Position numbers and translations under genes: made by a program. 64,000 nt of DNA from positions 182,900,001 to 182,964,000 of the forward strand of contig CM097882.1 in NCBI GenBank assembly GCA_044892505.1, in the 5' to 3' direction. A model generated the notes under the pieces. It was not told the DNA's origin. It did not search any database and saw only the letters and a list, made by a program, of their open reading frames with translations. This document shows, one piece after another, positions 29,348 to 44,791 of the stretch (its first letter is position 1; every line of letters begins with the position of its first letter). This DNA comes from Schmidtea nova (lineage: Eukaryota).

Positions 29348-32300
29348 TTGAGAAAAGGAGAAAAGAGTGTCATAATAAAACCAGCAGAGAAGAAAGTCGA
29401 CAGAAAAATCAACAAAGAGGACCCAAATAGTGTGGTAATAAAACCAGCAGAAAAGAATAAAGCTACCAAGAATAATAATCAGAAAGGCCTAAAAGGAAGT
29501 AAAGCGAGGAAGATAATAATACAAAAATCGATTATCGAAAACGATAAACTATCAGTAACAAGCAACAGTTCAAGCAACAAAGAAAATCAAGCAGAACCCG
29601 AGAGAAACCCAATAAGTGAAATAGAAGTCGACAAAACCAACAACGATTATATAGAAGAAATAGAAGACGAAGTAGAACAAGAAACAGAAAGTGACGATAC
29701 CGATAACGATAGTAAAGCATCAGATAACGAATCAGCAAAAGAAACTGAGATCGACCGAAATTCGAGTGACGAACATAACAGTGAACTAGAAACAATAGGA
29801 AACGAAAGTAAAATAACTACAGACAGCGGAATCGAAATGAGCGAACCAAGAGAAGAGATAAAAGACAAATTTTCCGGAGAACCGTTTAATGGAGATGCGA
29901 GTAAATTGGAAACTTTCTTAAAAGAATTTGGCATATTCGTGGAAGTATGCAAGTGGAAACCAGAAACAACTGTAAGTAGAATTCAGCTATATTTAAAAGA
30001 TAGCGCATTAGATCTATATTTGGAAGCAAAAAACGGAATTAATCCACCTACAAGTTGGTCAGCGATAAAGGACTTTTTCCAACAAACCTTCGGAATAAAT
30101 AAAGTATTGAATGAGGCATTCACGGAATTCTCAATGAGGAAACAAAAGATAAATGAATCGAATGCGGTATATGCAAGCGAATTGAAAAAGTTAGCAAAGT
30201 TGATCTTTAATCAAGACAGCCCAATAAATGAGGAGTTAATGGCAGCTATCTTTGTGGGAGGATTAAGAAGACCCGACATAAGAGCGCAAGTTGGATGTCA
30301 AGGGTGTAAAACCATCGACCAAGCACTAGAAACAGCTAATAGATTTGAACTACATATGATAGGAAATGACGGTAGAATCTATTTAGCTATGGATACAGCA
30401 CAAAACGAACAAGAAGTGAACCTGAATAACCACATTCCAAATTCACAACAATTAAACCGACCACCACCTCAGCGAAGGAATGAAGGGAGTAAAGTATCAA
30501 ATTACGGAAACCAAAACAATTACAACCTCCAAGGACCAACGAAACAATGCAAAACATGTGGGAAATTGGGACATTGGCAACAAGAATGTTATCAGAACTT
30601 GAATTGTGGAAAATGTGGAGTAAAAGGGCATTCAGAGAGCAGATGTTACACAATAACCTGTTTTAACTGTGGACGACCCGGAAACCTATCAAGAAATTGC
30701 GGACAAAGAAGCAATCAACGAGGAAACTGGCAGAATACTGGAAACCGACAAAACTATGGAAACCAACCAACTGGTGGAAACCGACAGAATTATGGAAATC
30801 AGCCAAATAATGGAAATCGATCGGAATACGGAAACCAACCAAATAGTAATAATAATAACCAAAATAAAAATACCACTAAAGAGATACATTTAATGCAAGA
30901 GGTTCAAAGATTGACAGAGCTGATAAACAATACAACCAGAGGAAATCCGCAAACAGGTCAACAACAAATCAACATGATGAGAAAAATAGAAAGCGAAAAC
31001 GAACGATTGAATCGGGAAAGCCAAGCACGACATGCTCAGGAATGGGCAAGAATACAAAGAGAAGAGGAACAAAAACAGCAAGAAAGAGAACGACAACCTC
31101 TAAGAATCAATATGATGAGAGCAACCAACCAAACAAATACCCACGAGAAAGAGACTGTGCCAGAAATAAATCCAACAAACCTGAATCCAACCAATAACGA
31201 AGGTCGAAAAGAAATAGTACCAGGAAGCGAAGAAGCAGAGAAAGAAACAGAGAAGGAAGTAGAAAAAGAAGGGAACCAAGAAGAGAAAAGGAAACTCGGG
31301 AAAAGAGGAATGATGGTAATTTTGCCAAACAAGCACGTGTTTCGATTCCAATATAATATAAAGGAAGAAGTAGGAATATTGTTCAACAAAGTGAATGAAA
31401 TGGCTCCAGGAGTAACGAAACTGCCCAGAGAAGCATTCCTAAAAATAGAAGGTGCACCAGAAGTAAAATTGAAACTAACGGATACATGGGAAAACATGGG
31501 AGTAGTAGAGACAAAAAGAAATGTGATGGTAATCAAGGAAATAGAACCAGAAGGAATTCCATCGCCAGTGCGTCACGAAACACGAATCAGTCGAATATTT
31601 AAAGGGAAAATGATACGAAGACGGTTGGGAGAAATAGACGAGTTAGAACGAAAAATGAGAAAGGTCGAAGTAGTAGACGACAAGAGTGAATCAACACAAA
31701 AAGCTATTAAAAGTGAAACAAGACCAACGGAAAATACACCAAGTGAAATCAACCAAATAAAACACATTAACATGTTGAGAGGCCAGGCAAAGAATTTTTC
31801 AGATGACGAAGAGGATAGTGACGTCAGTAGTCTAGCCGGAGATATGCTAAACGAACCGGAAATTGAAGACAAAAAGATAGAAGTAGTAAAGACACCAGAA
31901 ACTGTTCAAGTAAAAGAGGACGAGATCCAGAAATTATTAGATAACGCGCTAGAAGTAATATATAATGAAGAATTCATCGACAAGAAACACTATCGGAAAT
32001 TCATGAGAGCGATATTACAAATGAACTATAAAGAGTGGTTACCAGGCCGGGAAGTAGAAACACTAAGCCAATACGTAGGAAAATTATTAAAAGAACCACT
32101 CCATGAATATATAATACTAATACAGATAAAAACATGTCTACCAAGGATTTGGATCAAAACTCCACTCACGGAGGATATTTATCAATGGGTAGAGAATAGA
32201 TTAGGGAGTTCATATAAAAACAAATTCCTCTATTCACAGAATGGACTAGTGAAGAAAAGGACGCATTTGATAGAAACAGGCATATGGCCAGGAGAGGTGA

Positions 32301-43826: not shown

Positions 43827-44791
43827 AAGGGTTAGAAAGTAATCAAACTTACGAAATATGCCTGATTAGGAAAAGCGACAAAACAACAGTAAATGAACTA
43901 GAATGCAAAAGATATAAAACACCCACCAGAAGAAGAGTTGAAAAGACAACGCGAAAAAGCAGAGGAAGACAACGGAACAAAGGAAAAGCGAGGTATACCA
44001 CTACCTTTAAACCTAATCGACAACAGAAAAACCAAGAAATACAAATAAAAACCGAAAAGAATACTACAGCAACTCTTATACTATGGAGAATAGACAATAA
44101 AACGTTAGAAATATGTTGGGCAGTAGTTCAGGAACAAAAAGAAAGACAGCCACGATACTGCGAAAACGTAAAAGGAAAAGAAGAAATGAGTATCAAAAAT
44201 CTGAAATTTAATAGAGAATACGAGATATGTGCGGTAGAAAAGACGGACATATTGGGAAATCAGCAGGAAAGATGCGAAACGTACTACACACCGGTAAACT
44301 CAACGTCCAAAGGGAAAGTGAGAAAACTCGAATTTAAAGAATTAAGTCAGACAACGGAACAAATGGACGCAGAACAAGTAGTAATAGACCCTTACGCAAG
44401 ATGGACGCCGGAAGAAGTAATTAAAGAAGTCAAAAGAAAACAACAAGAACGAGAACAATTACTAAATAAACTAAAGGGACAGTACGGACCAATGATTAAC
44501 CAGAGTGAAATTACGAAGATGGACGTAAACAAACAAGTTGGAGAACTAATTGGTCTAGGAATACTAGCAGCAACTATTCCAGTAATAACAGTGTTATTAA
44601 TAATATGGATATACGATGTACTCAACAAGAAACCAATAACACATTGGCCAGATATAAAAATTATGAACTACAGAATAGAATTACCGGAAGAAGTACAGAA
44701 AGAATTGCAAAGGAGGACGAAAGGTAAAGAATTTTGGAGACAAATAGAAGATGAAGAGCGGTACGAAGGAAAGACAGTGATGGTGATATAG
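43742..44791 (+). CDS. Polyprotein part 4: FN3-like repeats, TM helix, cytoplasmic tail
   Basis: LQIEGLESNQTYEIC...C..YKTP and IKNLKFNREYEIC...C..YYTP; TM LIGLGILAATIPVITVLLIIWIY. Back in the frame of part 1 after a -1 shift near 43760. Confidence 0.75.
   Translation: MLEETRKENKPEYTAQCRTNKGTTTLQIEGLESNQTYEICLIRKSDKTTVNELECKRYKTPTRRRVEKTTRKSRGRQRNKGKARYTTTFKPNRQQKNQEIQIKTEKNTTATLILWRIDNKTLEICWAVVQEQKERQPRYCENVKGKEEMSIKNLKFNREYEICAVEKTDILGNQQERCETYYTPVNSTSKGKVRKLEFKELSQTTEQMDAEQVVIDPYARWTPEEVIKEVKRKQQEREQLLNKLKGQYGPMINQSEITKMDVNKQVGELIGLGILAATIPVITVLLIIWIYDVLNKKPITHWPDIKIMNYRIELPEEVQKELQRRTKGKEFWRQIEDEERYEGKTVMVI

Follow-up and report, generated by a model that had tools for sequence, protein, structure and literature searches.

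The window analysed here is a stretch of 64,000 nucleotides (nt) from Schmidtea nova (assembly GCA_044892505.1, contig CM097882.1, positions 182,900,001 to 182,964,000 of the forward strand), numbered from its first letter and with a GC background of 20-30%. It holds a retroelement with long terminal repeats (LTRs) that spans 23436-52123 on the forward strand (28,688 bp; total length is about 28.2-28.8 kb in most copies) and encloses all four parts of a very long coding region. This region is very probably the principal gene of a giant Ty3/Gypsy element of the Burro type; in unbroken copies it forms one frame of about 5,000-5,160 codons, and the window copy carries three private breaks, likely acquired after insertion. 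Assignment to Ty3/Gypsy follows from paired LTRs with TG...CA ends, a 4-bp target-site duplication at both element edges, a tRNA primer site, and the Pol order protease (PR), reverse transcriptase (RT), RNase H (RH) and integrase (IN). The primer tRNA of the element is likely tRNA-Pro(UGG); as a separate observation, genes for this tRNA form a tandem array with a 308-bp period from G000:C1:459608209-459611227 (L121) onwards, and the 19-letter pattern has 912 matches genome-wide.

The coding region falls into four open parts, 29315-39379 (3,354 codons), 39380-41362, 41313-43826 and 43676-44791; the first, second and fourth share a reading frame. A preliminary description, made from the letters of the window, had joined them into a single polyprotein of about 5,150 amino acids (aa) starting at 29348, with no gag-pol frameshift. 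The arrangement of the four parts and the lack of such a frameshift in the open reading frame (ORF) are confirmed. The proposed start does not hold, as a leucine codon and not an ATG lies at 29348; the first ATG, at 29837, gives about 4,987 aa in unbroken copies, and a length of about 5,150 aa requires a start ahead of it, which the selection data favour. Along this frame (ORF1), Pfam recognizes Retrotrans_gag, two CCHC knuckles, a Monjiviricetes-type fusion glycoprotein (Env), protease, RT, RNase H, integrase and ankyrins.

Continuity and decay of the frame among copies

A 401-base query across the premature stop was compared with the animal's own genome, giving 652 first-look candidates of which the best 40 were scored; of the 39 other matches, the best 30 were retrieved as 30-kb spans and constitute the 30 copies surveyed. 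In nine of these 30, the frame runs unbroken from the first ATG to a common terminal stop (4,985-4,988 aa), and eight have a single stop-to-stop frame of 5,140-5,162 codons, exactly 5,140 in six of them; a tenth long frame of 4,746 codons has an internal deletion and another end point. The frame is open across the sites of breaks 1, 2 and 3 in 28, 27 and 28 of the 30 copies, respectively. These copies support the single-polyprotein reading, which is correct at the level of the family. In one sampled copy (L034-L036), about 9.9 kb of extra DNA, containing a 1,264-codon frame of its own, is inserted at the match to window position 34500.

Variants were counted in 29 aligned sequences, namely the window and 28 copies; one copy with a 10-kb insertion and one with a failed anchor were left out. 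From the first methionine to the stop, the 875 shared single-base codon variants comprise 244 nonsynonymous, 631 synonymous and 0 stops, which corresponds to a ratio of nonsynonymous to synonymous rates (dN/dS) of 0.10; the singletons comprise 420 nonsynonymous, 419 synonymous and 21 stops. Both shared indels of the ORF are in frame; 30 of the 39 singleton indels shift it. The lowest shared-variant dN/dS is that of Env (0.01), followed by RT-RH (0.02) and IN (0.04), and the ankyrin region (0.19) and the FN3-like region (0.30) are looser. Most linkers lie at 0.05-0.18; one acidic linker, at 0.72, is near neutral.

The three interruptions of the window copy differ in kind. Break 1 is a TGA within QQEDKEL*PIIEFL, as the preliminary description had it; the CGA proposed as its ancestor is the codon of none of the 29 other loci returned, all of which have a sense codon at this position. 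Break 2, first taken for one extra T at about 41341, is an 11-nt deletion near 41336 inside the ankyrin repeats, all 30 copies being 10-11 nt longer than the window there. Break 3 is a one-base loss, as described, placed near 43787 instead of about 43760, within the third FN3-like repeat and in or beside a 3-base run; the window differs here by one base from all 29 copies having that region. None of the breaks is fixed across the copies; all are private to the window.

Programmed recoding, in which the stop and both frame changes would act as signals setting protein ratios, is extremely unlikely. Break 1 does sit between RNase H and integrase, and recoding at the gag-pol junction is frequent in retroelements in general; however, the stop is a sense codon in every other copy compared, the frame changes are deletions found in the window copy alone, and no shared stop occurs anywhere in the ORF. 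Since the frame is also open at the break sites and unbroken copies exist, neither readthrough, already disfavoured in the preliminary description, nor programmed frameshifting is needed, and the copy survey rules both out.

Break number climbs with LTR divergence (Spearman 0.58, p 0.0009, n=29). The window copy has the most diverged LTR pair among those 29, from which about 1.8 stops and about 2.2 indels are predicted, compared with the 1 and 2 seen; five of the six copies whose two LTRs are identical have no break. This climb and the lack of any stop common to the copies point to decay after insertion, not to recoding, and the three private breaks likely arose in this way. Assembly errors in a copy that is intact in the animal form another, very unlikely, explanation: one-base losses are frequent in long reads and break 3 lies at a short run, but neither a substitution nor an 11-nt deletion resembles a polishing error, the break count matches LTR age, and the copies with identical LTRs are nearly all free of breaks. 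In one study, four contig runs span all 30 bins of 38800-44800, and no contig at 99% likeness covers break 3. Judged by its reading frame, the window copy by itself would yield a 3,180-aa product stopping before the integrase.

Translation start, domains and accessory genes

No ATG occurs in any frame from 29184 to 29836. Within this stretch, dN/dS is 0.06 for the shared variants of 29510-29836 (3 nonsynonymous, 12 synonymous; binomial p 4e-7), compared with about 1.0 in the other two frames and 0.9-2.1 in upstream DNA; the change-over to synonymous variation lies near 29490, directly after an in-frame, acceptor-like CAG that ends at 29482 and is present in 26 of 29 sequences. With some 115 selected codons ahead of the first ATG, the start is likely to come from splicing or from a non-AUG codon. 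Flatworm spliced leaders are described in PMC9851317 as ending in AUG and thus able to supply an initiator; trans-splicing near 29482 is one candidate for the start, with cis-splicing, for which a donor-like site is present at 27893, and non-AUG initiation as the others. In-frame indels of 63 and 3 nt farther upstream leave an earlier start possible. The true product is likely to measure about 5,100-5,160 aa, perhaps with an additional form of 4,987 aa. An acceptor-like site at 29257, strong and in frame, was rejected because it meets a stop at 29312 in 29 of 29 sequences and cannot supply the start.

Several segments of the frame were identified by weaker signals (Table 1). Two putative ubiquitin-like segments of the window show no mutual alignment and no Pfam ubiquitin match. 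For the Bcl-2-like model, the listed PDB fold matches are Bcl-2-family chains in 44 of 45 rows, all with E above 0.2, and the segment has no sequence match in PDB. In the four repeats following the integrase, Cys, Trp and Tyr residues are conserved; a model of two repeats (pLDDT 58) shows two seven-stranded sandwiches and matches FN3-containing chains (best E 1.4e-5), a four-repeat profile finds in PDB tenascin FN3 only, weakly (E 0.7-1.3), and a homologue search with the FN3-like ectodomain gave 0 matches among 4,578 candidates. Hydrophobic stretches lie at 34823 (before Env), 36581 (after Env), 42849 (after the ankyrins), 43341 and 44561 (near the C-terminus).

Six accessory ORFs of the element are under purifying selection: two in the LTR, the RING, TRAF-like, coiled-coil and membrane-protein ORFs. 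The two LTR ORFs, each intact in 27 of 30 copies and also present as 3' LTR copies, have no significant Pfam match. The TRAF-like ORF is intact in 24 of 30 copies, and the coiled-coil ORF measures about 360 aa in other copies. A BIR domain gave no Pfam match in the scanned ORFs and 0 pattern matches in 31 sequences. The leader between the RING ORF and ORF1 (28063-28821) holds tandem-repeat arrays of 30, 41 and 42-55 nt; the legend of the published Burro figure likewise marks tandem repeats. Between ORF1 and the TRAF ORF, 44951-45274 reads by eye as an ATG-started frame of about 107 codons.

Table 1. Features of the element in window coordinates.
Feature	Position	Strand	Remarks
5' LTR	23436..26802	+	3,367 bp, TG...CA ends
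LTR-encoded ORF	24848..25324	+	158 aa; shared-variant dN/dS 0.13; other frames 1.9-2.0
Second LTR-encoded ORF	25661..26062	+	133 aa; dN/dS 0.18; other frames 0.44 and 1.88
Primer-binding site	26809..26826	+	complementary to host tRNA-Pro(UGG) 3' end, one mismatch
Upstream accessory ORF	27158..27619	+	153 aa; C-terminal RING (PF13920, E 9e-12); dN/dS 0.13
ATG-free in-frame stretch before Gag	29315..29836	+	coding constraint from about 29490
Gag	29837..30700	+	first ATG, Retrotrans_gag-like capsid region, CCHC knuckles at 30548 and 30605
Likely ubiquitin/SUMO-like domain	33480..33610	+	weak; only via homologous segment of a related family (PF11976, E 0.027)
Bcl-2-like domain	34190..34810	+	weak Pfam match (E 0.11); low-confidence model (pLDDT 44); just before Env
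Class III-type fusion glycoprotein region	34823..36631	+	internal signal-like stretch, ectodomain (PF24664, E 5e-70), anchor 36581-36631
Aspartic protease	37217..37489	+	DTG at 37259
dUTPase-like segment	37520..37900	+	weak; 5/5 PDB matches dUTPase or dCTP deaminase, best E 0.035
Reverse transcriptase and RNase H	38153..39205	+	YIDD at 38474
Break 1, premature stop TGA	39377..39379	+	private to window copy; between RNase H and integrase
Integrase	39530..40500	+	H2C2, core, GPY/F
Ankyrin repeats	40910..42140	+	interrupted by break 2
Second signal-like stretch and four FN3-like repeats	42849..44299	+	repeats 42909-43151, 43407-43640, ~43690-43930, 44060-44299
C-terminal membrane anchor, short tail, terminal stop	44561..44791	+	
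TRAF-like ORF downstream of ORF1	45365..46759	+	separate; RING, zinc fingers, coiled coil, MATH; dN/dS 0.14
Coiled-coil ORF	46862..47950 (end approximate)	+	broken in window near 47582 and 47762
Membrane-protein ORF	47980..48552	+	190 aa; dN/dS 0.19
3' LTR	48758..52123	+	99.44% identity to 5' LTR (18 mismatches, 1 gap)

The window holds further repeats outside the element. A 2.3-kb sequence occurs twice in inverted orientation (16862-19185 and 52795-55117, 98.4%), flanking the element on both sides; its ORF has a weak DUF4371 match, which suggests a hAT-type DNA transposon. A 5.6-kb foldback-like structure at 6350-11999 is built of inverted arrays of a 575-bp tandem unit and has terminal inverted arms of 210 bp. 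The start of the window (1-2445) is a BEL/Pao pol fragment (Peptidase_A17, rve, DUF5641), and 55800-60222 holds a separate broken Gypsy pol (RT, IN).

Relatives and comparison with Burro

A search with the Bcl-2/Env region retrieved five unnamed database proteins among 3,685 candidates. Four of them are single chains of 3,761-4,029 aa with Gag-like, Env, PR, RT, RH and IN segments, and in each of the four the integrase is followed by a signal-like stretch, a segment of 260-390 aa and an anchor at the C-terminus. The fifth stops after the protease. An extra aspartic-protease-like domain follows the integrase in these relatives (P0001-P0005), in some also preceding the main protease. In the animal's own genome, a Bcl-2 family search found a family of compact elements, about 13-14 kb long, whose frame of 3,058-3,082 codons is laid out as Gag, Bcl-2-like, Env, Pol, signal, short ectodomain and anchor in six of six loci fetched. 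The unbroken frame is kept in families only 37-45% identical in Pol. The four-repeat FN3 profile gives barely any score to the database relatives and to the one FN3-like stretch of the compact family (E 0.11); without clear sequence homology between these post-integrase segments and that of the window, a shared topology is shown, and homology is not. Compact-family loci (L131-L148, e.g. G000:C3:59830898-59844457) have LTRs of 1.0-1.15 kb that are 99.9-100% identical and a second ORF, and one locus is a tandem with a common LTR.

A likely non-autonomous relative of 25-28 kb was sampled at three loci (L161-L166, at G000:C1:253261344-253289118; L149-L154; L155-L160). LTR pairs of 4.1-5.4 kb with 99.9-100% identity were found in two of the three, and at the one locus inspected the ends are TG...CA and the primer site is that of tRNA-Pro. 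The protease is the only core gene kept in all three, with no Gag, Env, RT, RH or IN found by tblastn; it belongs to an ORF of about 1,000 aa, split in one locus, together with SUMO-like, ankyrin, signal and one FN3-like segment. TRAF, 399-aa BIR-RING and RING ORFs are also carried. A BIR search gave 1,295 candidates, and most of the 150 scored lie in frames of about 399 aa. This family is likely a cargo-only carrier of an inhibitor of apoptosis (IAP) at high copy number, and apparently non-autonomous.

Burro elements of planarians are described as exceeding 30 kb, with an ORF1 of 4,873 aa in Schmidtea mediterranea and 5,140 aa in Dugesia tigrina that includes env in frame; their content is given as Gag, Ubi/SUMO-like, BCL2-like, Env, PR, dUTPase-like, RT, RH, IN and ankyrins, with MATH/TRAF inside or outside ORF1 (PMC6431247, which also cites Burro1/GYPSM1 from Jurka 2007 and Grohme 2018). 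The window element has the length near 30 kb with multi-kb LTRs, a single ORF1 without a gag-pol frameshift whose length in the nine unbroken copies (4,985-4,988 aa from the first methionine) falls in the Burro range of about 4,900-5,100 aa, the mononegavirus-fusion-glycoprotein-like Env in frame between Gag/BCL2 and the protease, and the ankyrin and MATH/TRAF cargo; BCL2-like, Ubi/SUMO-like and dUTPase-like segments lie at the published positions, with weak scores only. It is a new genome's member of the already described Burro design. No named Burro protein appeared among the homologue-search matches.

As a Gypsy LTR element of about 30 kb with one huge ORF1 and a matching domain order, the window element resembles Burro1/GYPSM1 of S. 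mediterranea as described there. It differs from Burro1 proper in lacking the BIR domain (B-IAP) and in having TRAF/MATH as a separate ORF downstream of ORF1 instead of inside it, as well as in its two strict CCHC knuckles, where Burro1 has three, and its RING-only upstream ORF. The FN3-like repeats with a C-terminal anchor go unmentioned in section 7 of PMC6431247. The Burro-like element of Dugesia (Girardia) tigrina shares the 5,140-aa ORF1, the two CCHC knuckles and a MATH/TRAF outside ORF1; this ORF lies upstream there and downstream in the window family, and the midasin homology reported for that element is not shown by Pfam scans of the window element (PMC6431247).

GAG-ENV-POL errantiviruses with an HSV/gB-type Env are reported from Platyhelminthes, Nematoda and Bryozoa (PMC13524379). 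They resemble the window family in the Env between gag and pol, the class III-type fusogen and the many recent copies; unlike its single frame, the main text of PMC13524379 describes three ORFs, and the words polyprotein, Burro and fibronectin are absent from that main text. The BIR-RING protein of Burro1 (B-IAP) protects stem cells according to Lee et al. 2026, as summarised in PMC13465017. The window element likewise carries apoptosis/ubiquitin cargo (RING, TRAF, Bcl-2-like); unlike this Burro1, its family has no BIR, and BIR-RING is found in the separate, apparently non-autonomous family of this genome. Searches for Burro with fibronectin and for Burro with non-autonomous found no describing paper in the literature searched, outside which the main Burro papers lie.

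A proposed membrane-threaded polyprotein and its meaning

If the frame is translated as one chain, the polyprotein would be made from processed RNA and threaded through the endoplasmic reticulum membrane twice. Gag and the Bcl-2-like domain would be cytosolic, followed by a signal, a lumenal Env and its anchor; the PR-RT-RH-IN-ankyrin portion would again be cytosolic and would be followed by the second signal, the FN3-like ectodomain and the last anchor. Cuts by host signal peptidase and by the protease of the element would release structural, enzymatic, surface and host-modulating proteins in equimolar amounts (capsid, enzymes, two membrane proteins, apoptosis/ubiquitin modulators), and subgenomic RNAs would serve to express the RING and TRAF accessory ORFs. 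Such a topology has a likeness to that of the flavivirus polyprotein.

Alternatively, the long frame may never be translated into one chain: splicing would yield the Gag, Env, Pol and FN3 proteins individually, and other reasons would keep the frame open. We regard this as unlikely. A 3-kb leader with 44 ATGs and accessory ORFs speaks for separate proteins, as some RNA processing or internal initiation is needed to pass it, and an equimolar chain of 5,000 aa is costly; however, the linkers too lack shared stops and are under purifying selection, the near-neutral acidic linker apart, the unbroken frame persists in the distant families, and the non-autonomous relative keeps its protease fused to cargo, as expected if cargo must be cut from a chain.

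Several points weigh against the single membrane-threaded polyprotein of a Burro-type element. We infer its translation, cleavage and membrane topology from sequence, and the topology of the FN3 region would change if the hydrophobic stretch at 43341 serves as a stop-transfer signal, as it may. Drawn from the best-scored candidates, the 30 copies are close relatives of the window copy, and the single-base break 3 could be an assembly error. The comparison with Burro rests on published descriptions in place of sequence alignment.

A broader proposal, tentative and on balance doubtful, sees in Burro-type elements retrovirus-like agents that have an envelope and two surface proteins, a class III fusogen and a post-integrase FN3-repeat membrane protein for attachment or receptor mimicry, both cut from a flavivirus-style polyprotein whose layout is kept across distant single-ORF Gag-Env-Pol lineages. 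In the window family, on this proposal, the element would not encode the start AUG of the polyprotein, which would come from the flatworm spliced leader at the in-frame acceptor near 29482.

A single retroelement polyprotein of 5,000 aa in which Env lies between Gag and Pol was already published in 2019. The window family mainly extends Burro to another genome, and its natural copies confirm a continuous frame under selection. Additions are the second, FN3-like membrane protein after the integrase, the ATG-free selected N-terminus, the sister families, and the finding that Env is the most constrained segment, which argues that an envelope is needed for spread. The cargo-only family of 25-28 kb may be a more interesting lead than the window element itself. 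If the points on Env, the second membrane protein and the ATG-free N-terminus hold, Burro would be a model for a retrotransposon becoming a complex enveloped virus, and for the capture of host apoptosis and TNF-signalling genes and their shuffling between families.

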